NCBI GenBank assembly: GCA_038045405.1
Contig: JBBSYF010000001.1
Coordinates: 101,175 to 165,174 of the forward strand
Source of the DNA: Nanobdellota archaeon
Lineage (GTDB): Archaea > Nanobdellota > Nanobdellia > Pacearchaeales > GW2011-AR1
Reading direction: 5' to 3'
DNA: 64,000 nt
Positions 10,087 through 43,494 of this stretch are shown piece by piece. The notes beneath the pieces were generated by a model. It saw only the letters and a list, made by a program, of their open reading frames with translations. It had not been told where the DNA came from and did no database searches. Made by a program: the position numbers and the translations under genes. Every line of letters begins with the position of its first letter. Within the stretch, counting starts at the first letter, position 1.

Positions 10087-10202
10087 GAAAGACAGCACCA
10101 TTGCTTCGCGTCTTTTCGGACACTAACACAAGCGGCGTAGGAAGCTTAACTTCTGTGTTCGGAAAGGGAACAGGTGTTTCCAACCTACTATGGCCGTCTT
10201 CT
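10087..10202 (-). rRNA. 5S ribosomal RNA, orphan and not linked to 16S/23S
   Basis: The reverse complement contains GGCCATAG...GGAAACACCTGTTCCCTTTCCGAACACAGAAGTTAAGC..., the 5S loop C/helix signature. Terminal helix I pairs GAAGACGGC with GCTGTCTTTC. Confidence 0.8.
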
Positions 10203-12758: not shown

Positions 12759-13631
12759 ATGCCTATCTTCGTAAAACTTACTAAAGAAGACAGAATTAGA
12801 CTATTCAAAGAAGCTAAGAAAAATCTAAATGGTCCATGGAACAAAGTTTACCCTCAGTTTAACATTAGTAAGTCAATGTTTTTTAACTACCTCTCTGGAA
12901 AATATGACATCCCCCAAGACATCTTCTTAAACCTGAAAAAAATAGCAAAATTTAACATATCTAACTATAAACAGTTCAATAAAAACAAATTCATAAAAAA
13001 AGAGATAAAAAATCCAATAATGGACAGTCACCTTGCAGAAATTCTAGGAGTTCTCAATGGTGATGGATACATATCTGATATTAAATATGAAATTAGTGTG
13101 GTTTTAAGTTCCTATGAAAAAAATTATGCTCTTTATCTAAAAAATATGTTTGAAAAAAAATTTAAAACTCATTTTAATCTCATTATTCAACCTGGGAAAA
13201 TCAGATTAAAGACTTATTCTACTGATATTTTTAAAATACTTACTTCTAACTATAACCTTCCAAATGGAAAGAAAAAAGGAAAATTAGCCATCCCAAAACA
13301 AGTTTTTACAAACAGAATATGGCTAATTTCTTATCTTAGGGGGTTATTTGACACTGATGGAAGTTTTTATATTAGAAGAAAAAAAGACCCTGTTATAGAG
13401 ATAAGTAGCGCAGATAAACGATTTTTAAACGAAGTAAAAGATACCTTAATCCATTTAGGATTTAATACATCTATTGGGACTAATAAAATTTCTATTTACA
13501 GAAAAGAAGATATCATCAAATTTTTCAATTTGATAAAACCTGCAAACTCAAAACATTTAAAAAAACATCAAAGTTACTTTAATTTAGGCGCTGGTAGTAT
13601 AATGGCTAGTATATCTGCCTTCCAGGCATAA
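12759..13631 (+). CDS. single-chain LAGLIDADG homing endonuclease-like protein with an N-terminal HTH-like region
   Basis: Two LAGLIDADG motifs, LAEILGVLNGDGYIS and LRGLFDTDGSFYI. The 3' end of the ORF runs into tRNA-Gly exon 1, so the true stop may be read-through ORF extension. Confidence 0.7.
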   Translation: MPIFVKLTKEDRIRLFKEAKKNLNGPWNKVYPQFNISKSMFFNYLSGKYDIPQDIFLNLKKIAKFNISNYKQFNKNKFIKKEIKNPIMDSHLAEILGVLNGDGYISDIKYEISVVLSSYEKNYALYLKNMFEKKFKTHFNLIIQPGKIRLKTYSTDIFKILTSNYNLPNGKKKGKLAIPKQVFTNRIWLISYLRGLFDTDGSFYIRRKKDPVIEISSADKRFLNEVKDTLIHLGFNTSIGTNKISIYRKEDIIKFFNLIKPANSKHLKKHQSYFNLGAGSIMASISAFQA

Positions 13632-13691
13632 AACCTTAAGGATTGAGTGCAAAGAAAGCAGATGGCCCGGGTTCGACTCCCGGCCGGCGCA
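13588..13691 (+). tRNA. tRNA-Gly(UCC) interrupted by an about 32-nt intron at the canonical 37/38 position
   Basis: Exons GCGCTGGTAGTATAATGGCTAGTATATCTGCCTTCCA / AGCAGATGGCCCGGGTTCGACTCCCGGCCGGCGCA match archaeal tRNA-Gly(UCC). The intron GGCATAAAACC...GCAAAGAA can pair with the anticodon loop, as in a bulge-helix-bulge substrate. Confidence 0.75.
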
Positions 13692-16304: not shown

Positions 16305-16781
16305 ATGAAAAAAAGATTGACTGAAAAGGAGTTTAAGTCTATTTATACAAGAGTACCTCGTTTGTGTGTCGAAATAATAATTGTTAACAAAAAAGGAATT
16401 CTTCTCACTAAAAGATCAATAGAACCATTTAATGGTTTATGGCATTTTCCCGGGGGAGGGGTGTTCTTCCAAGAAACAATAAACCAAGCTATTAAGCGAG
16501 TAGCAAAAAATGAATTGGGAATAAATGTAACTGTACAAAAATTTTTAGGCTATGCAGAATATCCTCATGATGGTTTTAGACACAGTGTTTCGTTAGTTTT
16601 TAAATGCAAAATTTCTAAAAAAGAAAAACCAAGGGCTATTGAACAAGCAGATGACATTAACTTTTTCAACAAAATTCCCAAAGCAATTATTCCTTTCCAC
16701 AGGAAATTACTGAAAGTTTATCTGAAGAGTCTTTTAAACAAAGACAAGACTTCACAAAGAATAAAAACAAAGAAAAACTAA
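16305..16781 (+). CDS. NUDIX hydrolase
   Basis: Nudix box GGGVFFQETINQAIKRVAKNELGI (GX5EX7REUXEEXGU-like). Confidence 0.7.
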   Translation: MKKRLTEKEFKSIYTRVPRLCVEIIIVNKKGILLTKRSIEPFNGLWHFPGGGVFFQETINQAIKRVAKNELGINVTVQKFLGYAEYPHDGFRHSVSLVFKCKISKKEKPRAIEQADDINFFNKIPKAIIPFHRKLLKVYLKSLLNKDKTSQRIKTKKN

Positions 16782-16788
16782 CTCCCTT

Positions 16789-18144
16789 ATGAACTTTCTT
16801 AGAAAAGGTGAGTCTGATATGAAGAATATCTTTAGAAGAATAATAAACAGAGACTTCTCAGGAAATACTGGATTAGCAATAAAAAACAGTACATACCAGT
16901 TTTCCACCAATCTCACTGGAAAATTCGGAGCTCTTATCTTTACAGTGATTTTAGCGAGGATTATTCTCCCTGAAACTTTTGGGTTATACAGTCTAGCATT
17001 GTCTACAGTAATGTTTTTCTACGTCTTTTCTGACTTAGGAGTGAACCAAGCCCTCATTTTTTTCTCAGCAAAAAATCTAAATAAAAACAAGGGGAAAGCA
17101 AAGGCATACATCAGTTATTTGTTTAAAATTAAGTTACTCCTGGCTTTGGCTTCTGCAATAATCTTAATCGTTTTAGCAAGAGCAATCTCTGAGAATTATT
17201 ACAATCAACCAATATTTCTCGTTTTAATTGCAGGTTCACTTTACATGATCTTCACAAGCCTCCAAAGTTTTTACCTGGCTCTTTCCCAATCAAATAACAA
17301 TTTTAGAAACCCTTTAATAAAAGAAATTTTCTTACAATCTTCAAGAATTATTGCCATCCCCTTGATAATTGTTTATCTCAGAAAATTTGGTCCCACAAGT
17401 TCTTCAAATGTTCTTGCCATTTTTGTCTCCTTATTAGTTATTTCTATTCTTTCTTTACTATTGTTGTACTACCTTTCACTTAAAAATCTAAAACTAAAAA
17501 ATATAAAATCTTCTAAGTTAAACAGCAGAGACACAAAAGAAATAAGGAGTTATATTTTCAAGATAGCATTGATTACCTCTTCAATTCTACTGCTTGGTAA
17601 TATTGATAAAATTATCCTTGGCCCATTTGTTTCTCCCGAATTTGTAGGTTACTACTCTGCCGCATTTAGTTTGGTTAACGCCTCCGCATTTTTAATAGTC
17701 TTTTCAGATGTATTTTTTCCTATATTTCTCAGAGCAAAAGGAGATGAACTTAAGAGAGCCTTTGAAAAATCAGTAAGAGTGACATTTTTCATTTCATTCG
17801 CCCTATTCTCCTTTATCCTCATTTTTGCAACACCTCTAGTAAAAACAATCTTTGGAGCAAACTACTCGTCTTCGATCAACATGCTTAGACTACTAGCGCC
17901 TTTGGCTATTTTGTTTCCATTAATAGAACTTTATACTAGTTACATCATCTCTAAAGGAAGTTTAGAAAAGATAAGAAAAATAGTTTTCTTTATACTTGTT
18001 ATTTCAGTAGTGTTGCCTTTCTTGTTTGTTAAACTAATGCTAAATTATGGGCCCACCTCTGCAGTGTTAGGAGTTATCTTTGGGGTTATCTTAAGTAAAG
18101 CAATTCACCTAATCTGCCTGATGTGGGTATCCAGAAAAATTTAA
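16789..18144 (+). CDS. polysaccharide/oligosaccharide flippase (Wzx/MOP superfamily)
   Basis: About 440 aa protein with at least 12 TM helices and Wzx-like topology, located in the glycan cluster. Confidence 0.6.
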   Translation: MNFLRKGESDMKNIFRRIINRDFSGNTGLAIKNSTYQFSTNLTGKFGALIFTVILARIILPETFGLYSLALSTVMFFYVFSDLGVNQALIFFSAKNLNKNKGKAKAYISYLFKIKLLLALASAIILIVLARAISENYYNQPIFLVLIAGSLYMIFTSLQSFYLALSQSNNNFRNPLIKEIFLQSSRIIAIPLIIVYLRKFGPTSSSNVLAIFVSLLVISILSLLLLYYLSLKNLKLKNIKSSKLNSRDTKEIRSYIFKIALITSSILLLGNIDKIILGPFVSPEFVGYYSAAFSLVNASAFLIVFSDVFFPIFLRAKGDELKRAFEKSVRVTFFISFALFSFILIFATPLVKTIFGANYSSSINMLRLLAPLAILFPLIELYTSYIISKGSLEKIRKIVFFILVISVVLPFLFVKLMLNYGPTSAVLGVIFGVILSKAIHLICLMWVSRKI

Positions 18145-18153
18145 ATAGATTCT

Positions 18154-18951
18154 TTGAAAAATACTATAATGAAGAAAAAAGAAAAAGAGTTTGAAGATTT
18201 CAAAAAAAAGACATTACATCCAAAAGAAGAACTCTTAGCAATTTTAACTGTAAACCCTCTTACAGTAAGAATAGCTTACTTTATAAAAAAACACAATTTG
18301 AACATTTCTCCAAATCAGGTAACTTCTATTAGACTATTTTTATTATTTCCTTTAATCACCTTCTTGTTATTCCTAGCCCCAATTATGCAATACAGACTAT
18401 TTTATCTTCTTGCTGCAATAGGTGTCTATTTTATGGCATTCACTGATGATTTAGATGGAAACATTGCTAGAGGTTTAGATAAAAAATCAAAGTATGGGGC
18501 TTTTTTAGACAGTATTGCTGACAGAGCGTACACTTTCATCCTCCTAATCTTTATTTTTTCTTTTGGTATGTGGACTAATCACACGCTTTTAATTTATGGA
18601 GCATTATTCGCTCTTACGTTAAAATCTTTTCATTTGATGATAATAAGCAAAGTATACTACTACAACCCAAATTCAAGTGTTACGACTATTTTTCCTGAAT
18701 TCTTTCAGCCAGGAAACAAAGTAATGGTTAGTCTAAACAAGATATTCAAAATAAAAAGATGGTGTGAAAATTTCGGAGGATTTGAAAGAATATTCCTAGC
18801 CTTTATGCTACCGGCGATTTTATTTTATTTTGGTTTTGAATTAATTGTCTTTGTAATGGTTTATGCTTTAACCATTTTCAATATTTACTTTTACCTTTCA
18901 AGAACCAGAAACCTCATTAGAGACTATGAAGGCGTACTAAACAAGAAGTAA
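18154..18951 (+). CDS. CDP-alcohol phosphatidyltransferase family protein
   Basis: DDLDGNIARGLDKKSKYGAFLDSIADR matches the D-G-x2-A-R-x8-G-x3-G-x3-D-x3-D motif. Confidence 0.7.
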   Translation: MKNTIMKKKEKEFEDFKKKTLHPKEELLAILTVNPLTVRIAYFIKKHNLNISPNQVTSIRLFLLFPLITFLLFLAPIMQYRLFYLLAAIGVYFMAFTDDLDGNIARGLDKKSKYGAFLDSIADRAYTFILLIFIFSFGMWTNHTLLIYGALFALTLKSFHLMIISKVYYYNPNSSVTTIFPEFFQPGNKVMVSLNKIFKIKRWCENFGGFERIFLAFMLPAILFYFGFELIVFVMVYALTIFNIYFYLSRTRNLIRDYEGVLNKK

Positions 18952-18962
18952 TTTTCTTTATC

Positions 18963-19151
18963 CTATTCTTCAATTCTAACTTGCCACCTTTGGTAGTAAT
19001 TCCCCGTCAATTGTTTGTACTCTTTAGATAAACTGTCCACCCTTCTAGAATGTTCTTTAGTTAAATCCATATGCCCTGCACTTAGTCCTCTGTCAAGTAA
19101 AAATTCTAATTCAGATTCAATGTCTTTAATTCTTTTTTGTTCAATAGACAT
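18963..19151 (-). CDS. small hypothetical protein downstream of the radical-SAM gene
   Basis: 62 aa ORF with no cysteines and no recognised family. Confidence 0.2.
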   Translation of the reverse strand: MSIEQKRIKDIESELEFLLDRGLSAGHMDLTKEHSRRVDSLSKEYKQLTGNYYQRWQVRIEE

Positions 19152-19163
19152 CTGTAAAATTTC

Positions 19164-20966
19164 CTAAATCTGTCCAACCTTCTCTTCAAGATTCTTAAGA
19201 GAACCAAATTTTCTTCCAAACCAAGCTATCTTCTTTGCATATTCTGGCACATTTCCCCCAAAGTCATCAGGCGTTATGAGTCTTCTCTTCTGTCTTTGAA
19301 TAACATCATTAGGAATAGAAATAAATCTTCTATTAATCATCTCTTCAACTTGCTTGTAAAAAAGATTAAGATCTCCTGTTACAATATCTAAAAAAGATTT
19401 TTCTTCAAGAGGCCAAACTAGATTCCCATATTTCTGATCTACTTCTCCCCAATCCCCACCGCTTAAAGCTCTATCTAAACTTCTATTTGTACGCACTACT
19501 TGTTGACCAAATACAGTCTCTGGACCTGATGAAAGAAGTCCTTCATAAAAACTTTGGTAAGAAATTCCTTGGTTTTTTAAATAAACAGCAATATCTTGGG
19601 TAAGCCCTAAAATGTGGGATGCTTGAGTTGCCCATGAGAAAAGGAATGTTCTACGAAAATCTTCAGAGGGCATGGAACTAGTTGCTATAACTGTGTCTGC
19701 ATATTCCGTAATAGGATCTTCTCCAGGTGTAGCATGATTCTGTAATATGGGTGATCTGATAGACCTTAATCCGAATTCTTTCATGTACTCTGGATCATTC
19801 ATGCCTGCATTTTCTAGAAGCGTGCACAAATAAATATTAATTCCATTATGTTGACCACTGCTAAAAAGAGTTTCTAATCCTTTCGCAAAAGTTCCGTAAG
19901 TCTCTCCTGGAAGAGCCAATATCAATTCTGTGTAAGTAGGAATACCTGCCCCTTCATATTTTGCAAGTAACTCCGATCTATTATCAAATTTTATGTTTTT
20001 TCTTTTTATGTTTTCTAATACCTGTTCATCTAAACTCTGAAGAGATAATGTAACCCCTATACCCATCCCAGCATCTGTCAATTTTTTGGCCATGTTAAAC
20101 ATTCTCTCATGAGAGTTCTTAGCCCAGTTCGCTCTTAGCTGTTGGGGATATCCCACCCTTTTTTTTAATTCAATTAAGTAATCCGTTAGCTCCTCATCTT
20201 CTTTAAACATTCCAAAATTTGCATCAGCATTGTATATCATTGGAATTTTATTTTCCGCTGTCCAATCATATTCTGCTTTAATACGCTCTTCAGAAAATTT
20301 CCTCACTTTTGTTTGCGTAGCTGACCCCCACTGACAAAATTTACAGGAAAATGGACAACCTCTATGAGTTTCGGAAGTAACGTGGAACTCTAAATCCGGA
20401 TTATTTTTAACAAGATTATCAAATTCTCCAGTCAAATAAGGTGATGGTGAACGTTCTAGTTCCTCAATTGATAGTCTCGGTCTTCCAGGCGTTTTTACAG
20501 AATTCCCTCCTTGGTTTATAGTAAGTCCAGCTATTCCCTCATAATTTGGATTTTCTTTGAGGCGTTCTCTCAAAATATCAGAAAAAATTACTTCTCCTTC
20601 CCCATGAACAAGAAGGTCTACATAAGGATGTTCTTGGAAAAAACCATCAGAGCGATCCGGAACTTGTGGTCCCCCCATGACAATTAATGAATTCGGATGT
20701 TGTCTTCTTGTTTCTTTTGCTAATACCTTGCTCCATTCCCAGTTCCAAGTATAGCTTGAGATACCTACGACATCGGGGCTATCCAAAGATTTTGCAATAC
20801 TATTTGGATCTTCCCTCAAAAAAATTGGAGTGCCAAATCTGTAAGCCTCTTTTAATTCTGGTTGCGCTTTAGCGTGAGCCTGAAGGAGCCCCACAGAATA
20901 AGGCAAAAAAACTTTGTTTTCCCCAAATTTGTTGTTAACTTGAGCAAGGTATACATTTCTTGTCAT
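19164..20966 (-). CDS. B12-binding domain / radical SAM domain protein (class B rSAM-like)
   Basis: N-terminal Rossmann-like cobalamin-binding region (VVGISSYTWNW...LIVMGGP) and a CPFSCKFCQWG CxxxCxxC cluster. Confidence 0.75.
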   Translation of the reverse strand: MTRNVYLAQVNNKFGENKVFLPYSVGLLQAHAKAQPELKEAYRFGTPIFLREDPNSIAKSLDSPDVVGISSYTWNWEWSKVLAKETRRQHPNSLIVMGGPQVPDRSDGFFQEHPYVDLLVHGEGEVIFSDILRERLKENPNYEGIAGLTINQGGNSVKTPGRPRLSIEELERSPSPYLTGEFDNLVKNNPDLEFHVTSETHRGCPFSCKFCQWGSATQTKVRKFSEERIKAEYDWTAENKIPMIYNADANFGMFKEDEELTDYLIELKKRVGYPQQLRANWAKNSHERMFNMAKKLTDAGMGIGVTLSLQSLDEQVLENIKRKNIKFDNRSELLAKYEGAGIPTYTELILALPGETYGTFAKGLETLFSSGQHNGINIYLCTLLENAGMNDPEYMKEFGLRSIRSPILQNHATPGEDPITEYADTVIATSSMPSEDFRRTFLFSWATQASHILGLTQDIAVYLKNQGISYQSFYEGLLSSGPETVFGQQVVRTNRSLDRALSGGDWGEVDQKYGNLVWPLEEKSFLDIVTGDLNLFYKQVEEMINRRFISIPNDVIQRQKRRLITPDDFGGNVPEYAKKIAWFGRKFGSLKNLEEKVGQI

Positions 20967-21189
20967 AATTTTCTTTTGCCAATTCTAAGTTATTTTTTGG
21001 AATCCTCCGGTAGTTCTATAATTTAATCCCTTTATAAGATTTATGAAGAGAAAGCGTACAAATTAACAATATTCTCTACACTTTTGAAAAGAAATGGTGA
21101 AGATTTAACGATGTAATCGAATAAAATTTTTAGTCATATGCTACTCTATTTCATAATCTTTAAAAAACAATTCACTATCTCCTTGTAAT

Positions 21190-21921
21190 ATGAAAGCTAT
21201 AATTCTTGCAGCAGGAATCAACTCAAGACTAAAAGATTACATAAACATACCAAAATGTTTGCTTCCATTAGGAGATAAAACCATACTTGAAAATCAAGTA
21301 TCTTCATTAATAAAAGCAGGTTTTAAACAGGAGGATATACTTGTCGTTGTGGGACATAAACATGAAATGATAGAAAAAGTTCATAACAACACACTATTTA
21401 ATCCAAAATTTGCAGAGTTCAATAATGGTTATAGTGTTTATCTTGCATTACAGTACATCCTTCATGAGTGTGATTTACCAGAATCAGAAAAAATTTTTAT
21501 TCTGGATGGAGATCTTGTATATGACAATAACTTAATTCTAAAAATCAGTTCATCAGATAACGAAAACATTCTTGTAAACAAACCAATCGATTACAGTTTA
21601 GAACTAAAAGATGAAATTTCTGTTTTAGACAGTAACGGAAAAATCGTAGAATTACAAATCCCTTCTCAGAAAGACCCTCTGGCCCCTGAATACTCTCAAA
21701 AGCCTCTTTACAGTTATGCTGGAATAATGAAAATTTCAAAAAACGTTGCAACACAATTACACGAAAAACTAAAAACCTCTCATCAAGGTTGGTACACTTT
21801 ATCTCTTCCAGAGATTGTTCTTAATAATGATATCTACTCTTTTGAAATCACCGAAGATTTAAAATACTGTTTTGATGTGGATACTAAAGAAGATTTAGAC
21901 AAACTTTCAAACATTAACTAA
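21190..21921 (+). CDS. LicC-family nucleotidyltransferase (CTP:phospho-alcohol cytidylyltransferase-like)
   Basis: MKAIILAAGINSRL... and FNPKFAEFNNGYSVYLA...FILDGDLVY closely parallel the LicC/PntC pattern AIILAAGLGSRF ... FNDKYADYNNFYSLYL ... VIDADN. Confidence 0.65.
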   Translation: MKAIILAAGINSRLKDYINIPKCLLPLGDKTILENQVSSLIKAGFKQEDILVVVGHKHEMIEKVHNNTLFNPKFAEFNNGYSVYLALQYILHECDLPESEKIFILDGDLVYDNNLILKISSSDNENILVNKPIDYSLELKDEISVLDSNGKIVELQIPSQKDPLAPEYSQKPLYSYAGIMKISKNVATQLHEKLKTSHQGWYTLSLPEIVLNNDIYSFEITEDLKYCFDVDTKEDLDKLSNIN

Positions 21922-21922
21922 A

Positions 21923-23038
21923 ATGCAAAAATCAAGAAAACCCTTTAAGATGTTTACTGCCGGCCCAGTAAATGTTTCAGATACTGTCAAACAATCGTTA
22001 GCATATTCTGAAATAGGACATAGAGAACCAGAATTTTCTGAGGTTTACGAAAGCATAAGGGGGAAATTGTTACAAGTATTCGGAGCTAATCCTAAAGATT
22101 ATGGCTCTTTTGTCGTCGGAGCGTCTGGCACTGGTGGAATAGAATCTGTTTTGTCAGGTACTGTCCACAGCGGTGGGGAAATGCTCGTTATTAACAATGG
22201 TGCTTTCGGAGACAGAATGGCTGAGATTTGTGAAATATACCAGATTCCCACTCTAAGAGCAGGTTATCAATGGGGACAATATCCCGACCTTAAAGGTGTA
22301 GAAAGATTAATTCTTGAAAATCCCAAAATTGAAGCCGTCTCAATGGTATTCCTTGAAACTAGTACTGGTATGACAAATCCTGTTAAAGAAGTTGGGAAGC
22401 TTTGTAAAAAGTACGAAAAGATGTTCATTGTAGATGCTGTTAGCGGATTAGCAGGTGATCCTTTAAACGTTCAAGAATCAAATATAGACTTCTGTATATC
22501 CAATACCAACAAAGGACTTTCTGGTCTACCTGTAATCTCTTTTGTTTGCGCCAAAAAAAGTTCTGTTGAGAATGTAAGAGACATTCCTCCACGAAATTTT
22601 TATTTGAGTATGTTAAAGCATTATGATTACGCCGAAAAAACAAACCAAACACCAACTACTCCTCAGATTCCACTTTTTTATATGCTTGATCAAGCATTAA
22701 CTGAATTGTTAGAAGAAGGTGTTGACAATAGACACGGAAGATATCGAGAAAATAGTAATATTATGAGGCGTCGCCTTGGTGAACTGGGTTTTAGATTTCA
22801 GCTACCTGCAGAACAAATGTCACGAGTGATGACTAATGTTTTAATTCCAAATAGTCACAAATACGAGGAGTTTCATACTCCTTTGAAAGAAAGAGGGTAC
22901 ATTGTTTATCCGGGAAAAGGCCCTCTTGAAAACAAGATTATACATATTGCAAATGTTGGCACTCATACACTCGATGATGTAAATGACTTTTGTGATGTTG
23001 TTGCAGAAATTGTAAGAGAAAAGCGAGTAAAATATTAA
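21923..23038 (+). CDS. class V aminotransferase (serine-pyruvate / 2-aminoethylphosphonate-pyruvate transaminase-like)
   Basis: PLP-lysine region SNTNKGLSGLPVISF resembles the PhnW/AGXT motif SSANKCIQGVPGF; the length of about 370 aa also fits. Confidence 0.6.
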   Translation: MQKSRKPFKMFTAGPVNVSDTVKQSLAYSEIGHREPEFSEVYESIRGKLLQVFGANPKDYGSFVVGASGTGGIESVLSGTVHSGGEMLVINNGAFGDRMAEICEIYQIPTLRAGYQWGQYPDLKGVERLILENPKIEAVSMVFLETSTGMTNPVKEVGKLCKKYEKMFIVDAVSGLAGDPLNVQESNIDFCISNTNKGLSGLPVISFVCAKKSSVENVRDIPPRNFYLSMLKHYDYAEKTNQTPTTPQIPLFYMLDQALTELLEEGVDNRHGRYRENSNIMRRRLGELGFRFQLPAEQMSRVMTNVLIPNSHKYEEFHTPLKERGYIVYPGKGPLENKIIHIANVGTHTLDDVNDFCDVVAEIVREKRVKY

Positions 23039-23039
23039 C

Positions 23040-24155
23040 TTATTTCTCTTCCCTTTTTCTTTCAGGAAATAATCTTTGTATTTCTTCCTCAGATGCCCCG
23101 CAGATTCCTCTTTCAGTAATCAATCCGGTTATCAATCTAGCCGGAGTCACGTCAAAACCGTAATTTACAGCAGGGCTTTCTTCAGGAGTTACTAAAACTC
23201 TTTTCAATTCTCCCTCATGTAAACCTTCAACATAACTTACTTCCTCGGCATCCCTTTCTTCAATAGGAATTTCTTTCACTCCATCTTTAAGATTCCAATC
23301 AAAAGTTGATGAAGGGAGGGCAACGTAGAAAGGAACATTATTGTCTTTTGCAGATAATGCCTTAAGATATGTCCCTATCTTGTTAGCAACATCTCCAGTG
23401 TGGGTAACTCTATCTGCACCGACGATACAAGCATCTACCATTCCGTGTTGCATCAAATGTCCTCCAACATTATCCGAGATTACATGGTGTGGAACTCTAT
23501 GATTGAGTAACTCCCATGCTGTTAGTTTAGCTCCCTGATTTCTAGGTCTTGTTTCATCAACCCAAACATGAACTTTTATTCCAGCATCAAATGCAGCATA
23601 AACTGGAGCAAGTGCAGAACCGTAATCTACAAATGCTAACCAACCCGCATTACAGTGTGTTAGAATATTTACTGGTTCTCCACTTTTCTCTTTGCTTAGT
23701 CTTTTGATTATCTCTAAACCCTCTTGCCCAATTCTTCTACAGTATTCTGCATCCTCATCAGCAATTTTATTTGCCGTCTTTAATGCAACTTCTACTTTTT
23801 CTTCAAGCCCATTTACAGAGCTTATTTCTTTTATCTGTCTGTCGACGGCCAATGCAAGATTAATAGCTGTAGGTCTTGTTCTTTTAAGTTTTTCTCCAGA
23901 CTTTATCAAAAAGTTATCAAAATTATGGCTAGGGGCCTCAAGAGCTGCAAGGTACATTCCATATCCTGCTGTGGCTCCGATAAGACCTGCACCCCTCACA
24001 TGCATATCCTTAATTGCTGTTGTTGCATCTCTAACGGTTCTTAAATTTTCAATTACAAATTTATGTGGAAGATATCTCTGATCTATTATTTTGACTGTGG
24101 AATTCTCTTCTTCTGATAACCAAATTGTTTTGTAAGGAATACCTTTTACTCTCAT
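23040..24155 (-). CDS. eIF-2B alpha/beta/delta family isomerase (MtnA / ribose-1,5-bisphosphate isomerase-like)
   Basis: RGAGLIGATAGYGMYLA...VGADRV...NKIGT pattern of the MTR-1-P isomerase / aIF-2B family. Confidence 0.7.
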   Translation of the reverse strand: MRVKGIPYKTIWLSEEENSTVKIIDQRYLPHKFVIENLRTVRDATTAIKDMHVRGAGLIGATAGYGMYLAALEAPSHNFDNFLIKSGEKLKRTRPTAINLALAVDRQIKEISSVNGLEEKVEVALKTANKIADEDAEYCRRIGQEGLEIIKRLSKEKSGEPVNILTHCNAGWLAFVDYGSALAPVYAAFDAGIKVHVWVDETRPRNQGAKLTAWELLNHRVPHHVISDNVGGHLMQHGMVDACIVGADRVTHTGDVANKIGTYLKALSAKDNNVPFYVALPSSTFDWNLKDGVKEIPIEERDAEEVSYVEGLHEGELKRVLVTPEESPAVNYGFDVTPARLITGLITERGICGASEEEIQRLFPERKREEK

Positions 24156-25562: not shown

Positions 25563-26045
25563 ATGGAAGAGTCTAAGAAAAAACTTAATCTGATAATAGA
25601 CATTGACGGAGTAATGACTACTGGTCAATTCCTCTATTCTGAAAAAGGCAAAGCGTTCAAAGTCTTTGGCCCTCATGACTCGGACGGCCTTAAAATAATA
25701 AAAGATAAAATCAACATCCTCTTCATAACTGCAGACAAACGCGGTTTTAAAATCTCTAAAAAAAGAATCGACGACATGGGATACAAAATTGAACTTGTCA
25801 AGGACGGAAGCAGGTATGAATGGATAAAAAGTAATTTTGGTCTTGAAAATGTAATCTTCATTGGGGATGGGATTTCTGATGCTTTGGTAATCAGAGATTG
25901 TAGGTTTGGGATTGCTCCTGCAAATGCAAGAGTTGAAGCAAAGAAGTGGGCAAAGTACATAACACCCTCCAAATCAGCTGAAGGTGCTGTTTGTGATGCA
26001 TGCATAAAAATTAATAAGGTTTTCTTCGGTGGTAAGAACAATTAA
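25563..26045 (+). CDS. KdsC-family HAD-IIIA sugar-acid phosphate phosphatase
   Basis: LIIDIDGVMTTG HAD motif I and ...IGDGISD motif; the size of about 160 aa is typical of KdsC/NeuA-associated phosphatases. Confidence 0.65.
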   Translation: MEESKKKLNLIIDIDGVMTTGQFLYSEKGKAFKVFGPHDSDGLKIIKDKINILFITADKRGFKISKKRIDDMGYKIELVKDGSRYEWIKSNFGLENVIFIGDGISDALVIRDCRFGIAPANARVEAKKWAKYITPSKSAEGAVCDACIKINKVFFGGKNN

Positions 26046-27555
26046 TATGGATGAAAATCAAAAAATTCTAGAAGTAGCTAAAGAAGCGGCAAGAAAAGGC
26101 GGTGAAATAGTCTTAAAGTATTTTAAAGAAGAGGTTGAATTTCGTCAAAAAGAAGATAAAACATTTGCGAGCATTGCTGACGATGAATCGGAAAAGGAGA
26201 TTAAAGAAATAATCTTAAGAAATTTCCCAGAACATTCTATTTACGGGGAAGAAACAGGAAAAACCGGTCAAAGTAATATCGTTTGGCATGTTGATCCTTT
26301 AGATGGCACAAGCAATTTTAGAAATAAAATACCACTTTTTTGCGTTTCAATAGGGGTAGAAAGGGATGGAAATTTTATTGTGGGAGTTATTTATAACCCT
26401 ATTACAAATGAACTCTTTTCAGCTTCAGAAGGCGAAGGAGCTTTTGTTAACGAAAAAAGAATAAGTGTAAACAAAGAAGATATCTCTAAAGGAATTCTTG
26501 TTCTAGACTCTTCTTTCAAGGGAGACATTGGAAGAATAAAAACTAACTTACAAAGTGAAATAATCAAACTTTCTTCAAGAATTAGAATGATAGGAAGTAA
26601 TGCTCTGCAATTAGCAGAGGTAGCTGAAGGAGCATATTTCTCTTCAATTTCAGATCACATTGATGCCTATGACTTTGCTGCAGGAATAGTCTTAGTTAAA
26701 GAAGCTGGGGGAATTGTGACAGACCAATTTGGAAACAAACCCTCTGCAAAATCAAAAGTCATTGTTGCTTCGAATAAAAAAGAAAATCACGAGAAAATAA
26801 TTGGATTAACTAAAAATTATTATTCTAACTTTGATAAGCAAAATTCTGTTAATAATTATAAAGTTTGCATCTTAGCTGGGGGGATTGGTAGTAGGATGGG
26901 GGAGTTTTCTAAAACTTTTAATAAAGCGATGATTCCTGTTCAAGGAAAACCTTCTATTTGTCACATAATAGAAAAATTTCCCGAAGATGTAGAAATAGTG
27001 GTGATTGTTGGCTATAAAAAAGAAACAATCATAGACTACTTAAAATATGCTTATCCTAAAAGAAAATTTACTTTTTTCGAAGTTGAAAAACCTTCAGGAT
27101 TAGGCGCCGGTCCTGGCTATGCCGTTTTGGAATGTAAACACTTACTTCAATGCCCATTCATCTTTTTTGCTGCAGATACCTTAGTAAAAGAAAATGTTCC
27201 TGAACCCGATGAAAATTGGTTTGGAATCGCAGAAGTTGATGATACTAGTAGATTTTGTTCTGCCAGCATAAACGAAGAAGGAATGATTTCTAAAATTGAT
27301 GACAAAATAAAATGTGACAACAAGTTTGCATTTATAGGGTTAGCAGGGATAAAAGATTACAAAACTTTCTTTGCATCTTTAGAAAATGACAAAACACTCG
27401 TAAAAGGAGAAATTCAAGTTTCTAACGGATTTAAATCTCTAATGAACTTGGGAATGAAAGCAATTACATTTACCTGGTTTGATACTGGTGACCCTACATC
27501 GTATTCTCATGCTTTAGAAAATTATCCAAACGGGGAAGGTTATCGCGGGCAGTAA
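26029..27555 (+). CDS. bifunctional inositol-monophosphatase-family phosphatase / MobA-IspD-like cytidylyltransferase
   Basis: N-terminal IMPase motifs (WHVDPLDGTSNF and a downstream metal-binding region); C-terminal NTP-transferase domain beginning VCILAGGIGSRMG...GKPSI. Confidence 0.65.
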   Translation: MVRTINMDENQKILEVAKEAARKGGEIVLKYFKEEVEFRQKEDKTFASIADDESEKEIKEIILRNFPEHSIYGEETGKTGQSNIVWHVDPLDGTSNFRNKIPLFCVSIGVERDGNFIVGVIYNPITNELFSASEGEGAFVNEKRISVNKEDISKGILVLDSSFKGDIGRIKTNLQSEIIKLSSRIRMIGSNALQLAEVAEGAYFSSISDHIDAYDFAAGIVLVKEAGGIVTDQFGNKPSAKSKVIVASNKKENHEKIIGLTKNYYSNFDKQNSVNNYKVCILAGGIGSRMGEFSKTFNKAMIPVQGKPSICHIIEKFPEDVEIVVIVGYKKETIIDYLKYAYPKRKFTFFEVEKPSGLGAGPGYAVLECKHLLQCPFIFFAADTLVKENVPEPDENWFGIAEVDDTSRFCSASINEEGMISKIDDKIKCDNKFAFIGLAGIKDYKTFFASLENDKTLVKGEIQVSNGFKSLMNLGMKAITFTWFDTGDPTSYSHALENYPNGEGYRGQ

Positions 27556-27627
27556 TGCTAATCTCTATGCTTCAACTTCATAAATCTTATAAAGGCGTTT
27601 TAATATTTACGGGAGTAGTCAGCGAGG

Positions 27628-29277
27628 ATGTTTATAAATAAAAACATTATAGGCGACTATCGGATAGACAAAATGGTGAATTATAAAGTATGCATCTTAG
27701 CTGGAGGCGTTGCTAGTCAAATGGGCGACTTGACTAAACATGTTAATGCAGCTATTCTTCCCGTAAACTTCAAAGCTTCTATTTCTTATATGATTGAAAA
27801 ATTCCCAGAAGATGTTGAAATTGTAATTGCTGTTGGTCACAAAAAAGAAACAGTTATAGACTACTTAACTTTGGCATATCCAAATAGAAATCTAAAATTT
27901 GTTGAAGTTGATAGGTATTTTGGACCTGGAACCGGACCGGGGTATGGACTTCTTTGTTGCAAACAGCATTTGCAATGTCCATTTGTTTTTGCGGTGTCAG
28001 ATACAATAATCCTTGAAGAAATTCCAAAACCAGAGGAAAACTGGTTCGGAATCGCTCCCACAAAAGAAACAGAACCATATTGTACTGTCAAGATAAAAAA
28101 TAATCTTGTCTATCAAATTGACGACAAAATAAAATGTGATAATAAACATCTTTTCATTGGTTTGGCTGGAGTGAAAGATTATGAACACTTTTGGGAAGCT
28201 CTGGAGAATGATAAAGAGCCCGTAAGAGGAGAAATTCAAGTTTCCAACGGGTTCAAAAGGCTTATTGAAAAAAGACTTGTTCCTATAGGATTCACTTGGT
28301 TTGATACTGGAGCTCCTGGAAGCTATAAGGAAGCTCACCTCAATTTTTCTGGAGGAGGGCAAACATTTGACTTTAGTAAGAATAATGAATTTCTTTATTT
28401 TGTCAATGGAAGAGTCATAAAATTTTTTGCTGATCAAGAAATAACGAAAAAGAGGGTTGAAAGAGCAAAGAACCTCGTAGGGCTTACACCAAAAATTGAA
28501 GGACATAAAGGCAACTTCTATTCATACAAAAAAATGGATGGGCAGGTACTTTATTCCGTTTTAAACCCCCAAATAGTAAACGACTTTCTCCAATGGGCAA
28601 AAAGAGATTTGTGGAAGGAAATAACTCTCTCTGAAAATGAAAAAAAAGAGTTCAAAGAAGCAACACAAAAATTTTACTACGAAAAAACAATGAAAAGACT
28701 AGGTGAATTTTATAACAAATCAAAGATTAGTGACGATTTTAATGTCATCAACGGAGTTCAGATTCCACCCTTAAAAGAACTATTAAACAAAATCAATTGG
28801 GAATACATCTGCAACTCTGTTCCTGTAAAGTTTCATGGAGACCTACAATTCGATAACATTTTAGTAAGCAGAGATGAAAAGAGCCAACTAACAAAATTTA
28901 TCCTTCTCGATTGGAGACAAGACTTTGGAGGACTTACCAATGCTGGAGACTTATATTATGACTTCTCCAAATTGTATGGTGGAATGATAATCTCATACCA
29001 ACTGATAAAAACAGGCCAATTTTCTTTTGATATGAGTGGCTCAAGCATACATTACAACTATACTATCAAAAATGACTTGCTTGAAGCAAAAGATGAATTT
29101 GAGTCTTTCATTAAAAAAAATGGTTTTGACTTAAACAAAATAAAAGTTATCACTTCTCTAATTTTTCTAAATATGTCCCCATTACATCATGAACCCTTTG
29201 ATTTGATGCTTTATCACCTCGGAAAAACAATGTTGCATAAGTCTCTTAAACAAACTGAAAATAATAAATTACAATAA
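27628..29277 (+). CDS. bifunctional MobA-IspD-like cytidylyltransferase / APH-choline-kinase-like small-molecule kinase
   Basis: The N-terminal domain (VCILAGGVASQMG...) is about 60% identical to the C-terminal domain of the preceding gene. The C-terminal domain carries the Brenner-type HGDLQFDNILV...LLDW kinase motif. The likely true start is the internal Met near 27673. Confidence 0.6.
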   Translation: MFINKNIIGDYRIDKMVNYKVCILAGGVASQMGDLTKHVNAAILPVNFKASISYMIEKFPEDVEIVIAVGHKKETVIDYLTLAYPNRNLKFVEVDRYFGPGTGPGYGLLCCKQHLQCPFVFAVSDTIILEEIPKPEENWFGIAPTKETEPYCTVKIKNNLVYQIDDKIKCDNKHLFIGLAGVKDYEHFWEALENDKEPVRGEIQVSNGFKRLIEKRLVPIGFTWFDTGAPGSYKEAHLNFSGGGQTFDFSKNNEFLYFVNGRVIKFFADQEITKKRVERAKNLVGLTPKIEGHKGNFYSYKKMDGQVLYSVLNPQIVNDFLQWAKRDLWKEITLSENEKKEFKEATQKFYYEKTMKRLGEFYNKSKISDDFNVINGVQIPPLKELLNKINWEYICNSVPVKFHGDLQFDNILVSRDEKSQLTKFILLDWRQDFGGLTNAGDLYYDFSKLYGGMIISYQLIKTGQFSFDMSGSSIHYNYTIKNDLLEAKDEFESFIKKNGFDLNKIKVITSLIFLNMSPLHHEPFDLMLYHLGKTMLHKSLKQTENNKLQ

Positions 29278-29278
29278 A

Positions 29279-30995: not shown

Positions 30996-30996
30996 A

Positions 30997-40722: not shown

Positions 40723-43494
40723 CTATGCTATAAACTGCAATGTATCGAACTCTGCATATTCGCCAGATCTTCTTAAGAACTCATCCCTTACTAAAATGTT
40801 ATTAGGATAATCAACTTTCCAAATTTGTATTGGACCTCTGAAACCGTTGATATACGCCATGTTGCCTAAATTTGCACCTTGTTTGTTTAAGCTGTCAAGG
40901 GTTAGATCTGGTTGGGAATGAGCTACACTCACTGTTCCATATTCTTTCAAAGGATCATTAAGCAAGTACAATTGGGCAAACAACCCTTTTGAGACTCTTG
41001 GAGACAAATAAATAATTGCCCCTGCTCCGTCGATTTGAACACCTTGCCCATCCTGAGAAACGGAAGGAATTATTTTTATCACCGCGTCTAATCCGCTACC
41101 AAAATCAGAAAACTTATTTTCATAATACAAGTATCTTATTGGAATATTTGTTTGTTTTTGATTGTACACAAAAACAGCTTGTGGTTGTTTGAAAGAATTG
41201 GAGTTATTACTTCTTACAACCTCGATTACAGTCCCTATAACTACTGCTCTGTCTGAAGGTAAAAACACCTCTCCATCACCAGTGTTATACACAATATCTT
41301 GATCCACAGGTGCCCCTCCCTGATAGATCCTCATTTCACCAGTGCTTGTTTCTCTTATCTGTGAAGGGTTGAATAACATAATCGGAATTTGAGCAAATCT
41401 ATCTCCTCCTGCTCCATCGCCACCGATACTACTGTATGCTGGATATTTGCCTAAATCGGATGGATCTATTAACAGGTAAGATACGTTGTGTGTTTTCATG
41501 AAACTAAGTGCGGCATCCGGATTTGGCGTTGTTAGTAAGTACCTTCCTATTAAATGGTCCCAGTAAGTTACTTCGTGGCCTCCGTCAGTTACTGTGGGTC
41601 TTTTTCCAATTGTTTGTACCCAATAACCATAATCCCACCAATGAACAAACATACTTTGTTCAGCAGTATTTTCCCTTACCCATGCCATGGCCATTTGCCA
41701 CTGAACTGTGTCCGAACCTGGAATTGTGTACTTTACTGCACCAGAAGTGGCAGCCTCGTAATTTTTAAAAATTAAGCCAGTATAAAAAAGGCTGACTAAA
41801 ATTAATATCAACAAAAAAAGTTTCAAGAGGTCATCTTTTGATTTGATTCTGTAACTCATCAAAGCCAGAGGAAGGAAGGCCATAGGTATTATAAAAACTG
41901 GTGAAGATATCACAAGCAATCTTATTGCTCCTCTTGAAGCTACAATCATCAGAACAGTGAGAAGTAATACAAAAATATAAGAAAATTCTATTTCTTTAAA
42001 TCTTTCAAGCTTACCCTCACTTTTTAAGTTTTTTACATAAACATAAATTATTGAAGCAGAGAAAACAATCATTGCACTAAAATAAACAATCTGACTTACG
42101 GGATGAACACCATTGAACAGATTACTTTCTGGAGAGTATCTTGAAAAAATCAAACCAATCACGAAGGCAATAAAAGATGTAATTAATACTATCTTGTCTC
42201 TCTTCTCCAAACTTTTTACTGCTTCACAAAATAAGAATATTAATCCGAAGAAAAACATCCAGAAAAAACTAACACCAAAACTAGAAAAAATGTCTACGAC
42301 ATACAATGGTTTATTTTCAGCAACCGTTAGTCCTACTCTACTTCTTCCAAAAGGATAAAGAAGGTGCTCCTTTAAGTCAACTAAAATTCCAATAAGAAGG
42401 CTTGGTTTTAGAAAAACAAGGACTATGAATCCTCCCAATATAACCAACACAAGTGAGATTATTTCTTTGTTTATCCAGTCTTTTTTAAAAGTTCTTTTGA
42501 CTCTGTTCAAAATTCCCTCATTAATTAAAATGTTTACAATTAATACTAAAAACACAAACAAAGCTATTGTTGCATGAGTCACGTCTAAAGCAGCTACTTT
42601 AAATCCAACTTTCATTCCCAGGAATAAAAAAGAAGGGACAAACCACAAGGAGTAAATTATTGTTTCTTTTTTATTTACCTTTCCTAATAAAAAAGCAATC
42701 ATAACTGCCAGAGGCAGCGCGTAGAATATGAACCGAAATCCACCCCATGTGAAGGTCATTAATGCTGTTGAAATTCCGGAAGCAAGAGCTAACAGATATC
42801 CTCTATGTACATTGAGAATCTTTTTGTCATCATGCCATGCTTTCAAGAAAAAGAAAAAAGAGAGCCAAAAGAAAAATAATCCTGCACTCTCTAATTCGGG
42901 TATTCCAGCAGTTGTTCTATGTTGCATTAAAGGTAAAACAGAGTAAATGACCGTTGCAATAACTGCTATGGCACTTTTCTGAAACTCTTCTTTCTTAGGG
43001 AATAGTTCTCTTACAAAGAAGAAGAATACAATGATACTCAATCCAAAAAAGATTACCGGAAAAATTATTGCTGCATATTCCAATGAAACATCTTTTTGAA
43101 ACAAATTTAAAAGTTTGTAGAGGTATGCGATTCCATAAGGTAAAAAGTTGTAGTAAGGTTTTGCCCCGTGATAACGCATGTAATCTGGATTAAGAATTTT
43201 TCCATGATCGATTATTTCGTAAGCTGTTCTTAGATAAAGGAATGGGTCTAAATCTGGTCCAAGAGTATAACCTCCAGTAGTGACGTCTTTGAGCTGAGGT
43301 ATATTCGTTGTTCTTATGTACGTTCCAAGAATCAAAATCACCAGCAGTAAACCCAAAGCTATGTAAAACCATCTTTTGCTACCTTGCCAATTCTCTTTAA
43401 ATTTGAAACTGATAGAATCTTCACTCATTTTCTTAGATTCCCAAGGAAAAATCCCTTTAAAATCTTTGTCTATTGAATGATTAATGGCCAACAA
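40723..43494 (-). CDS. aglB: archaeal oligosaccharyltransferase AglB (STT3 homologue)
   Basis: 13-TM N-terminal domain and the catalytic HWWDYGYW motif; 923 aa. Confidence 0.85.
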   Translation of the reverse strand: MLAINHSIDKDFKGIFPWESKKMSEDSISFKFKENWQGSKRWFYIALGLLLVILILGTYIRTTNIPQLKDVTTGGYTLGPDLDPFLYLRTAYEIIDHGKILNPDYMRYHGAKPYYNFLPYGIAYLYKLLNLFQKDVSLEYAAIIFPVIFFGLSIIVFFFFVRELFPKKEEFQKSAIAVIATVIYSVLPLMQHRTTAGIPELESAGLFFFWLSFFFFLKAWHDDKKILNVHRGYLLALASGISTALMTFTWGGFRFIFYALPLAVMIAFLLGKVNKKETIIYSLWFVPSFLFLGMKVGFKVAALDVTHATIALFVFLVLIVNILINEGILNRVKRTFKKDWINKEIISLVLVILGGFIVLVFLKPSLLIGILVDLKEHLLYPFGRSRVGLTVAENKPLYVVDIFSSFGVSFFWMFFFGLIFLFCEAVKSLEKRDKIVLITSFIAFVIGLIFSRYSPESNLFNGVHPVSQIVYFSAMIVFSASIIYVYVKNLKSEGKLERFKEIEFSYIFVLLLTVLMIVASRGAIRLLVISSPVFIIPMAFLPLALMSYRIKSKDDLLKLFLLILILVSLFYTGLIFKNYEAATSGAVKYTIPGSDTVQWQMAMAWVRENTAEQSMFVHWWDYGYWVQTIGKRPTVTDGGHEVTYWDHLIGRYLLTTPNPDAALSFMKTHNVSYLLIDPSDLGKYPAYSSIGGDGAGGDRFAQIPIMLFNPSQIRETSTGEMRIYQGGAPVDQDIVYNTGDGEVFLPSDRAVVIGTVIEVVRSNNSNSFKQPQAVFVYNQKQTNIPIRYLYYENKFSDFGSGLDAVIKIIPSVSQDGQGVQIDGAGAIIYLSPRVSKGLFAQLYLLNDPLKEYGTVSVAHSQPDLTLDSLNKQGANLGNMAYINGFRGPIQIWKVDYPNNILVRDEFLRRSGEYAEFDTLQFIA

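Follow-up and report, generated by a model that had tools for sequence, protein, structure and literature searches.

Gene content of the locus

We examined six genes at positions 16305 to 23038 of a 64,000-nucleotide (64-kb) window of Nanobdellota archaeon DNA (assembly GCA_038045405.1, contig JBBSYF010000001.1), together with the genes around them. The six encode a Nudix hydrolase, a flippase, a CDP-alcohol phosphotransferase, a cobalamin (B12)-binding radical S-adenosylmethionine protein (rSAM), a cytidylyltransferase (CTase) of the LicC/PntC family, and a class V aminotransferase (AT) dependent on pyridoxal phosphate (PLP) that resembles 2-aminoethylphosphonate (AEP) transaminase (AEPT, or PhnW) (Table 1). 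A sequence-only reading had described this stretch as a sub-cluster for head-group or glycan decoration, perhaps with a phosphonate. All six open reading frames (ORFs) lie where it placed them and pass the Pfam gathering score, and the identities it gave them are correct (NUDIX, Polysacc_synt, CDP-OH_P_transf, B12-binding with Radical_SAM, NTP_transf_3/DUF6564, and Aminotran_5). It was also right that the 600-residue rSAM protein, with CPFSCKFC at residues 204-211 followed by QWG, is divergent from the CTase-AT pair, and that the CTase gene, homologous to PntC-AEPT and LicC, sits directly upstream of the AT gene, at a spacing of 1 nt. The A+T-rich stretch between the divergent genes is presumed to be a promoter region, and a TATA-like sequence, TTTAAAAA, some 25 nt ahead of the ATG of the CTase gene, may be part of it.

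Table 1. Positions of the six genes, their nearest neighbors, and an N-glycosylation gene of the same window
Feature	Position	Strand	Evidence or remark
Nudix hydrolase, GDP-mannose mannosyl hydrolase-like	16305..16781	+	Pfam NUDIX 52.6 bits
MOP/Wzx-family flippase	16789..18144	+	Pfam Polysacc_synt_3 95 bits, Polysacc_synt 86 bits
CDP-alcohol phosphotransferase	18154..18951	+	Pfam CDP-OH_P_transf 56 bits
B12-binding + Radical_SAM protein, 600 aa, TokK/ThnK/CysS type	19164..20966	-	Pfam, PDB matches
Divergent A+T-rich intergenic region	20967..21189	.	223 bp, between rSAM and CTase
LicC/PntC-family nucleotidyl (cytidylyl) transferase	21190..21921	+	Pfam NTP_transf_3 37.6 bits, DUF6564 34.5 bits
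AEP-transaminase-like class V PLP enzyme, 'His' clade	21923..23038	+	Pfam Aminotran_5 71 bits
MtnA-type (IF-2B family) isomerase	23040..24155	-	NCBIfam PRK05720, TIGR00512
Soluble GT-A-like protein without family, 429 aa	24219..25508	+	AlphaFold model, Foldseek
AglB/STT3	40723..43494		Glycan island member

The window belongs to a DPANN (Nanoarchaeota) genome from groundwater. The six genes are embedded in a long glycan and N-glycosylation island, which also includes AglB/STT3, an AglH-like glycosyltransferase (GT) of family GT4, a UDP-GlcNAc 2-epimerase, an NDP-sugar epimerase, further GT1, GT2, and GT9 proteins, and an FkbM methyltransferase. Hainich groundwater assemblies (0.1-0.2 µm fractions) and the NCBI metagenome-assembled genome GCA_964356025.1 contain near-identical sequence. 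No exact match to the AT turned up, but a 99% relative (P0001) and the NCBI contig CAYHFT010000001.1 did; relatives are annotated as Nanoarchaeota or Pacearchaeota, and the GC content of the genome is about 34%. DPANN archaea are ultra-small symbionts that cannot produce the majority of their lipids and metabolites themselves, and their surface chemistry is central to attachment to hosts. Our comparisons cover the window and 165 related loci, each with 10 kb on either side, among them a non-redundant set of 17 archaeal loci (6-21 kb each) whose aminotransferases carry the histidine described below.

An AEPT-like clade without the substrate-anchoring arginine

The resemblance of the AT to PhnW, as claimed by the sequence-only reading, stands in that its best NCBIfam models are AEP transaminases, but it falls under every equivalog threshold: 303 bits against TIGR03301 (PhnW-AepZ; cut-off 360.8), 231 bits against PRK13479 (cut-off 296), and 226 bits against TIGR02326 (cut-off 400.8). 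Its best match in the PDB is the AEPT domain of 6pd1, the Treponema denticola PntC-AEPT (2.4e-55), and PhnW structures come next. The Schiff-base Lys197 and the pyridine-nitrogen Asp171 are invariant in 32 relatives. His341, on the other hand, aligns with an Arg in 1m32, 9kk8, 6pd1, and 2dr1, and the motif at this site is IHIANVG in the AT versus FRIGNIG or FRIANIG (the latter in 6pd1) in the Arg-type structures. We take the site to be Arg340 of the Salmonella AEPT and Arg360 of human alanine-glyoxylate aminotransferase (AGT), where it presumably anchors the phosphonate or carboxylate of the substrate; this role was reportedly described by Chen and colleagues in 2002 and in the literature on AGT.

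All 24 close relatives have His at the Arg340 site; in a large sister clade from bacteria the residue is Gln, and in a few members Asn. Sorted by this residue, the fetched loci comprise 43 of the His type, 82 of the Gln type, and 24 of the Arg type. In a neighbor-joining tree, the His clade, the Gln clade, and the true AEPTs (9kk8, 6pd1, L084) form three neighboring groups, and the other Arg-type class V enzymes are distant. The AT is AEPT-like and lies outside the serine/aspartate aminotransferase clade, and yet, judged by their defining residue, it is no member of the AEP transaminases.

The hosts of the Gln-type enzymes are mostly Firmicutes and Spirochaetes (loci L011-L083, including L013 from Anaerovorax, L014 from Hominibacterium, and L080 from Oscillibacter). 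Here genes for an amino-acid permease, a regulator of the AraC type, and an FGGY kinase resembling glycerol kinase precede the AT gene (45 of 73 loci), a PHP histidinol-phosphatase-like gene is often alongside, and neither a motif scan nor BLAST of the fetched loci found a phosphoenolpyruvate (PEP) mutase nearby. The simplest reading of this clade would be uptake, phosphorylation, and transamination of an amino alcohol, for example serinol to serinol phosphate to dihydroxyacetone phosphate (DHAP). A literature search on serinol kinase/transaminase operons returned nothing relevant. Gln-type enzymes are probably mis-annotated when they are called AEP transaminases or members of the alanine-glyoxylate aminotransferase family.

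In three loci (L111, L112, L113) a His-type AT occurs without a CTase, beside an adenylate-forming (PaaK/CapK-like) enzyme, a small HAD protein, GT2 and GT4 glycosyltransferases, and many small uncharacterized ORFs, perhaps as part of a cassette for glycan modification that is mobile or viral.

The cytidylyltransferase and its partners

In the PDB, the CTase matches LicC (1jyk; 3.1e-11, 46.7 bits) and the PntC domain of 6pd1 (6.9e-07, 32.5 bits). Against the signature GXG(T/S)RX4-8PK it reads G-I-N-S-R-x8-P-K, so that the Arg and the PK pair are kept but Asn stands for the second Gly. That CTase and AT act together is indicated by the 1-nt spacing of their genes, by fused CTase-AT proteins of about 615 residues in many relatives, and by the bifunctional nature of the closest structure, 6pd1. 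Enzymes of the LicC/PntC family use substrates with an N-C-C-(O)-P skeleton (PMC6697681).

The motif D(x)2DG(x)2AR(x)8G(x)3D(x)3D of CDP-alcohol transferases is intact from residue 98 of the phosphotransferase (DDLDGNIARGLDKKSKYGAFLDSIAD; DDLDGNIARG...GAFLDSIAD), a protein with five hydrophobic segments; the flippase has 11, where about 10-12 transmembrane segments are expected of the MOP/Wzx family. We also considered the CTase and the CDP-alcohol transferase as the pair that makes di-myo-inositol phosphate (IPCT/DIPPS), and rejected this because the matches were weak, at 40 and 32 bits where the cut-off is 580.

The best NCBIfam match of the Nudix protein is the GDP-mannose mannosyl hydrolase (GDPMH) subfamily, at 49.7 bits and under the cut-off of 146. 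Its Nudix box is degenerate, with R-V-A-K-N-E instead of REUXEE, a pattern that we take to be the same as in GDPMH. The protein probably serves the glycan island by hydrolyzing NDP-sugars rather than CDP-alcohols. The 429-residue protein has no Pfam or NCBIfam match, and its 270 homologs, all annotated as hypothetical, occur only in DPANN archaea and the candidate phyla radiation; from their alignment, translation probably starts at Met20 (24276). Its AlphaFold model (pLDDT 91.7) yields weak GT-A matches only in Foldseek (RmlA, SpsA, TarP/TarS; TM-score about 0.3). Going by this fold, it is probably a glycosyl- or nucleotide-dependent transferase of the island, from a new glycosyltransferase-like family. 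On account of this GT-A-like transferase fold, we rejected it as a probable missing precursor enzyme.

Conservation of the neighborhood and the link to MtnA

In 14 of the 17 archaeal loci, the CTase and AT genes are direct neighbors or form a single fused gene. A flippase is present in 10, mostly directly upstream of the CTase-AT pair, and the rSAM gene likewise in 10, directly downstream of AT and on the same strand in three of them (L092, L006, L118). Eight loci have a CDP-alcohol transferase, which is of the window's type in five and of a second type, divergent from and abutting a fused CTase-AT gene, in three (L107, L009, L106); in another locus (L004) LicD takes its place. The GDPMH-like Nudix gene occurs in five loci and the gene for the 429-residue protein in six, where it directly follows AT in L088 and L093. 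Because the pair, the flippase, the rSAM gene, and the CDP-alcohol transferase recur in this way, the arrangement of the sub-cluster is not due to chance.

The most specific partner of the CTase-AT pair is an MtnA-type gene, which lies just beyond the stretch covered by the sequence-only reading, tail-to-tail with AT at a gap of 1 nt. Its product scores 454 bits against PRK05720 (cut-off 271) and 405 bits against TIGR00512 (mtnA; cut-off 279), and 155 bits, under the cut-off of 314, against the ribose-1,5-bisphosphate isomerase model TIGR00511. These scores suggest an isomerase that converts an aldose-1-phosphate to a ketose-1-phosphate. The enzyme is a candidate supplier of the AT substrate. 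MtnA homologs were found in His-type loci only (0 of 82 Gln-type and 0 of 24 Arg-type loci), always within 1 kb of the 3' end of AT (seven non-redundant loci and the P0028 locus). They occur in three arrangements: convergent with AT; convergent with an APH-family kinase gene in between, as in the MtnA-kinase pair of L005; and co-directional with overlapping stop and start codons, as in the CTase-AT-MtnA operon of L103. Since MtnA tracks the AT gene and not the rSAM gene, a role in merely clearing 5'-deoxyadenosine is argued against.

Two further features of these neighborhoods deserve mention. A second, shorter IF-2B paralog (273 aa, 45506-46327, plus strand) is under the cut-offs for both MtnA and ribose-1,5-bisphosphate isomerase, and the genome thus holds two IF-2B-type proteins within 23 kb. 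In L005/L008, L103, and the P0028 locus, which have no CDP-alcohol transferase, genes for three large polytopic membrane proteins (one PMT_2/ArnT-like, two without family) lie divergently upstream of CTase-AT, and an LPG_synthase_TM protein and a TylF-like O-methyltransferase are encoded downstream.

A predicted TokK-type radical SAM methylase

The rSAM protein has the Cx3Cx2C motif and an N-terminal B12-binding domain, and it matches TokK (7kdx) at 1.6e-112 over residues 18-492 (about 475 residues) and CysS at 2e-55; beyond these two, no solved B12-rSAM structure was matched to 1e-3 except AprD4. Residues that contact the cofactors in TokK are kept: S69-x-Y71-x-W73 aligns with S72-x-Y74-x-W76 of TokK, and the Arg and Trp of the Cys loop and the D-A-N (DAN) motif are also shared. 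The roles of these cobalamin and cluster contacts have been described for TokK (PMC9204698). On this evidence, the protein is predicted to be a cobalamin-dependent C-methyltransferase of the TokK/ThnK/CysS type, with the head group or a sugar as its possible target.

The sequence-only reading had called this enzyme Fom3-type, a label that our comparisons do not support. In a published sequence network, ThnK, TokK, and CysS share one cluster, and Fom3 falls in another with MoeK5 and HpnJ (PMC9204698); our placement relative to Fom3 follows that network rather than a direct comparison with the Fom3 sequence. Against the HpnJ model the protein scores 63 bits, and against the NCBIfam KedN5 family 291 bits (cut-off 700), over the N-terminal 400 positions only. 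The label is weakened further by the wider family, with more than 2900 matches and uncharacterized, in which relatives at 42-50% identity come from ordinary glycan clusters, of Patescibacteria, Rhodospirillaceae and other proteobacteria, and others, that have no CTase-AT.

Some of the rSAM relatives (P0146, P0177, P0203, P0224) carry intein, Hint, or LAGLIDADG insertions and reach 900-1020 residues. Directly downstream of the rSAM gene, on the same strand, is a 62-codon ORF (18963-19151, minus strand), for which a gene is also predicted in L001 (7041-7229), a contig of 99% identity.

The phosphonate question

The sequence-only reading noted that no PEP mutase was visible in the window, and a scan for the motif EDK(X)5NS agrees: it is found in none of the six frames of the 64 kb. 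In six frames of the 165 loci, the scan returned nothing but one non-homologous chance match (L060). BLAST with Mytilus PepM, an approximate query run without a positive control, was negative in the window and in all 165 loci, and the Pfam domains for PEP mutase and the TPP-dependent decarboxylase are missing from five annotated neighborhoods. Linkage of the AT gene to phnX/phnA or pepM/ppd was likewise seen neither within the window nor in the 165 loci. Literature searches on DPANN archaea with phosphonate, phosphoenolpyruvate mutase, or CDP-alcohol transferase gave nothing relevant, judged in part by titles and abstracts. A phosphonate is thus disfavored, and the head group is probably a phosphate ester.

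Proposed pathway and alternatives

We propose that the module serves archaeal surface decoration, mostly in DPANN, by the cytidylyl-activation logic of Lic and Pnt systems, and we put the probability of this reading at about one half. The group installed is probably an amino-alcohol phosphate, distinct from the AEP and phosphocholine versions. What survives of the head-group modification claimed by the sequence-only reading is its general form, a cytidylyl-activated head group with a CDP-alcohol transferase, flipping, and possible C-methylation; the phosphonate form is not supported. The context of the Gln clade, the 2-keto-1-phosphate products of MtnA, and the N-C-C-(O)-P substrates of LicC/PntC enzymes together suggest that the AT is a 2-oxoalkyl-phosphate aminotransferase and that the CTase activates its product. 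Transamination of this type, from R-CO-CH2-OPO3 to R-CH(NH2)-CH2-OPO3, is carried out by HisC, and the products of MtnA have the same local structure as a substrate of the DHAP type.

The pathway might then run as follows. The AEPT-like PLP enzyme would aminate a carbonyl beside a phosphorylated carbon and yield a 2-aminoalkyl phosphate, R-CH(NH3+)-CH2-O-PO3. Its likeliest substrate would be either a ketose-1-phosphate from the MtnA-type isomerase, made from a nucleoside-derived aldose-1-phosphate (ribulose-1-phosphate or its 5-deoxy or 5-methylthio form), or else DHAP, which would give serinol phosphate. Homology and gene fusion suggest that the LicC/PntC-like transferase, with CTP, would convert this product to a CDP-amino-alcohol. 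From there, as co-occurrence suggests, the CDP-alcohol phosphotransferase (LicD in one relative) would place the phospho-amino-alcohol on a lipid or lipid-linked glycan, and the MOP flippase would export the decorated product. Finally, the TokK-type rSAM enzyme could C-methylate, once or more, either the head group or a sugar within this glycan.

It is tempting to speculate further that the pathway makes an amino-alditol phosphate. An aldose-1-phosphate (ribose-1-phosphate, 5-deoxyribose-1-phosphate, or 5-methylthioribose-1-phosphate) would be isomerized by MtnA and aminated at C2, and the resulting CDP-2-amino-2-deoxypentitol would donate its head group to a scavenged lipid or an N-glycan, with C-methylation by the rSAM enzyme. 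So specific a version is doubtful, and we offer it tentatively. As its product we considered the aminopentanetetrol head group of Methanomicrobiales and Aquificales, and rejected it: the nuclear magnetic resonance description, as we read it, has N on C1 and phosphate on O2 (PMC6423904), versus the opposite regiochemistry expected of MtnA and AT. That no relatives from Methanomicrobiales or Aquificae are among the best genome matches also counts against this product.

Several points weigh against the proposal of an amino-alcohol phosphate. Its carbonyl substrate is read from gene context and a single active-site residue, and the loss of the Arg leaves binding of the amino donor's carboxylate unexplained, so that the AT is perhaps no transaminase. 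The second Gly of the CTase P-loop is Asn or another residue across the clade. MtnA is convergent, and not co-transcribed, in most loci, and it is missing from about 60% of His-type loci. SecDF, with no obvious functional link, is also syntenic in nine of the 17 loci, and synteny alone can therefore mislead. Since rSAM relatives occur in glycan clusters without any CTase, the link of this enzyme to the head group is possibly indirect. As to phosphonates, the Arg-type relative L084 likewise lacks pepM nearby, so local absence of pepM is not decisive, and these genomes could encode pepM and ppd outside the stretches that we viewed, 64 kb here and 10 kb on either side of each locus.

This last point leads to the CMP-AEP decoration that the sequence-only reading had put forward. 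With pepM and ppd elsewhere in the genome, or with phosphonoacetaldehyde or AEP obtained from the host, the AT would produce AEP, the CTase CMP-AEP, and the CDP-alcohol transferase a phosphonolipid or phosphonoglycan, which the rSAM enzyme would C-methylate much like Fom3. Among characterized proteins, AEPT and PntC-AEPT come closest to the AT and the CTase-AT architecture, the AT clade stands beside true AEPT in the tree, and Burkholderiales ppm clusters with AEPT, CTase, and CDP-OH transferase are known (PMC8942020). Nevertheless, we consider this quite unlikely, given that PepM and Ppd were found neither in the 64 kb nor in the 165 loci, that the AT stays below the PhnW cut-offs in a separate clade with His for the Arg340 equivalent in all members, and that the rSAM enzyme is TokK/CysS-like and outside the Fom3 cluster; moreover, the other pathway genes are tightly clustered, so that an unlinked pepM-ppd pair in each lineage would be unusual. 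It is unlikely, too, that the 'sub-cluster' is a stretch of a larger glycan island instead of one pathway, in which only CTase-AT and the transferase make the head group, the rSAM enzyme, the Nudix protein, and the GT-A-like protein serve other sugars, and MtnA is a bystander. Were this so, it would be natural for rSAM relatives (42-50% identity) to lack a CTase-AT and sit beside GT2, UDP-sugar dehydrogenases, DegT, and Wzy, for the Nudix protein to be GDPMH-like, for genes as unrelated as SecDF to travel along, and for a separate NDP-sugar module to lie at 25563-31461. It would be harder to see why the rSAM gene is kept in 10 of 17 loci, three times directly downstream of AT on the same strand, or why the adjacency of MtnA has been kept through three rearrangements.

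Two other accounts reassign the PLP enzyme itself. It could be a decarboxylase or lyase acting on a phospho-amino acid (for example, O-phosphoserine to phosphoethanolamine, or O-phosphothreonine to aminopropanol phosphate) and feeding a Kennedy-like CDP-ethanolamine route. CobD is a decarboxylase within an aminotransferase fold, and exchange of Arg for His or Gln would remove the residue that normally binds the alpha-carboxylate of the amino-acid or keto-acid partner. The invariant His33-Arg34 also resembles the phosphate-binding HR pair of phosphoserine aminotransferase, and the product would have the N-C-C-O-P skeleton taken by LicC-type enzymes. We know, however, of no decarboxylase or lyase in the class V AGXT/AEPT family, the Gln-clade context of kinase, AT, and permease fits transamination better, and the MtnA linkage would be left unexplained, which together make this account improbable. 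More improbable still, in our view, is that AT and MtnA, with the MtnK-like kinase, belong to methionine or 5'-deoxyadenosine salvage, with the AT as the terminal transaminase from 2-keto-4-methylthiobutyrate (KMTB) to methionine, the CTase-like domain structural or regulatory, and the glycan genes mere neighbors. The adjacency of MtnA exclusive to the His clade and the APH kinase next to MtnA in L005 would suit this account, as would a match of the AT to 9os7 (2.5e-40), a methionyl-tRNA synthetase fusion of Mycoplasma penetrans in which an AGAT domain transaminates KMTB and the N-terminal domain resembles PntC (PMC13215547). That match is weaker than the one to AEPT, though, and genes for MtnB, MtnC, and MtnD were seen in no locus. 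A keto-acid substrate would require the very Arg that the AT has lost, and the CTase keeps its catalytic Arg and Lys and its constant pairing with CDP-alcohol or LicD transferases and a flippase.

Relation to known systems

The nearest parallel to the pathway proposed here is the T. denticola PntC-AEPT (Tde1415, 6pd1), which likewise joins a LicC-like CTase to a class V AEPT-like PLP enzyme; Pnt and other phosphonyl-tailoring clusters also have a transferase and surface glycan or lipid genes nearby. Unlike those systems, the archaeal locus has no PEP mutase or decarboxylase nearby, its AT has His for the Arg of 6pd1 and forms a separate clade linked to MtnA, and its CTase, with an altered P-loop, is nearer to LicC than to PntC (46.7 versus 32.5 bits). 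Like the LicA/LicC/LicD phosphocholine pathway and Kennedy-type systems, it would combine CTP activation by a LicC-family enzyme with transfer by LicD (in L004) or a CDP-alcohol phosphotransferase, but the amino-alcohol phosphate would apparently come from a PLP enzyme rather than from a kinase acting on an imported base.

The CDP-ribitol pathway (TarJ reductase and TarI) offers a chemical precedent, as it modifies the C2 carbonyl of a ketose phosphate and then activates the phospho-alditol with CMP, and histidinol-phosphate chemistry (HisC/HisJ) offers another in the transamination of a 2-oxoalkyl phosphate. Differences from TarJ and TarI are amination instead of reduction, a phosphate at C1 if MtnA supplies the substrate, and unrelated enzyme families. 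AEPT-type AT, cytidylyltransferase, and CDP-alcohol phosphatidyltransferase also meet in the 'CDP-OH' phosphonolipid clusters of Burkholderiales, whose defining genes are ppm and ppd (Li and Horsman, 2022; PMC8942020); neither gene was found in our window. The rSAM enzyme shares its motif, B12 domain, and cofactor contacts with TokK, ThnK, and CysS, which act as (serial) C-methylases, but it is encoded in an archaeal glycan island rather than in a carbapenem or cystobactamid cluster and has a sub-cut-off KedN5 score. In fosfomycin biosynthesis (Fom1/Fom3), a class B rSAM enzyme beside a cytidylyltransferase methylates cytidylyl-2-hydroxyethylphosphonate, and methylation of a CMP-linked small molecule is conceivable here as well, although the archaeal enzyme groups with TokK/CysS and phosphonate machinery is missing.

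Lic/Pnt logic thus appears to be reused, across DPANN and a few other archaea, with a conserved clade of Arg-less ATs unlinked to PEP mutase. If the product is indeed a new phospho-amino-alcohol, possibly derived through MtnA, it would be a new head group for archaeal surface chemistry and would give a function to Pfam DUF6564. A phospho-amino-alcohol would also imply that metagenomic surveys overcall phosphonate metabolism through the 'PhnW-like' annotations of the archaeal and the gut Firmicutes Gln-type enzymes. An amino-alditol, in particular, would be a new kind of head group, would extend the AEPT and LicC families to a further class of substrates, and would give the products of MtnA a new fate. 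The MtnA linkage, the Arg-less AEPT clades now annotated as PhnW, and the bearing on DPANN surface chemistry are, in our view, the main points, and to them may be added a soluble B12-dependent radical SAM methylase of the TokK family from an organism obliged to scavenge cobalamin.

Other features of the window

The NDP-sugar module at 25563-31461 (plus strand) is itself conserved, and recurs in L088, L093, L118, and L002. It encodes a KdsC-like HAD phosphatase, a fusion of an IMPase (HisN-like) domain with a nucleotidyltransferase (508 aa), a nucleotidyltransferase-kinase fusion (549 aa), a GatZ/class II aldolase-like protein, a short-chain dehydrogenase/reductase, and a cupin. We considered it as a source of precursor for the head group and set it aside, as it resembles an independent, NDP-heptose-type sugar activation route, with a GT9 gene near at 34503-35624. 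Between the two, at 31473-33497 (minus strand), lies a gene for a 674-residue protein in which a GFO_IDH_MocA NAD-binding dehydrogenase domain is joined to a DAO-type FAD oxidoreductase (a weak GlpA-like match), which shows no conservation across related loci.

Upstream of the six genes, a free-standing LAGLIDADG_3 homing-endonuclease-like ORF (12759-13631, plus strand) lies between genes for a VTT-domain membrane protein and SecF, a position also kept in L096 and L009. Its end, and the predicted GTG start of SecF, overlap an Rfam tRNA match (104 nt, 54.4 bits; 13588-13691, plus strand) that ARAGORN did not call and that may be an intron-containing archaeal tRNA. Toward the ends of the window are a CstA peptide transporter gene (676-2313) and a 5S rRNA (10087-10201) on one side and, on the other, a gene for a 525-residue ATPase of the MORC/HATPase_c_3 type (61773-63350, minus strand) that adjoins a ribosomal-protein region.

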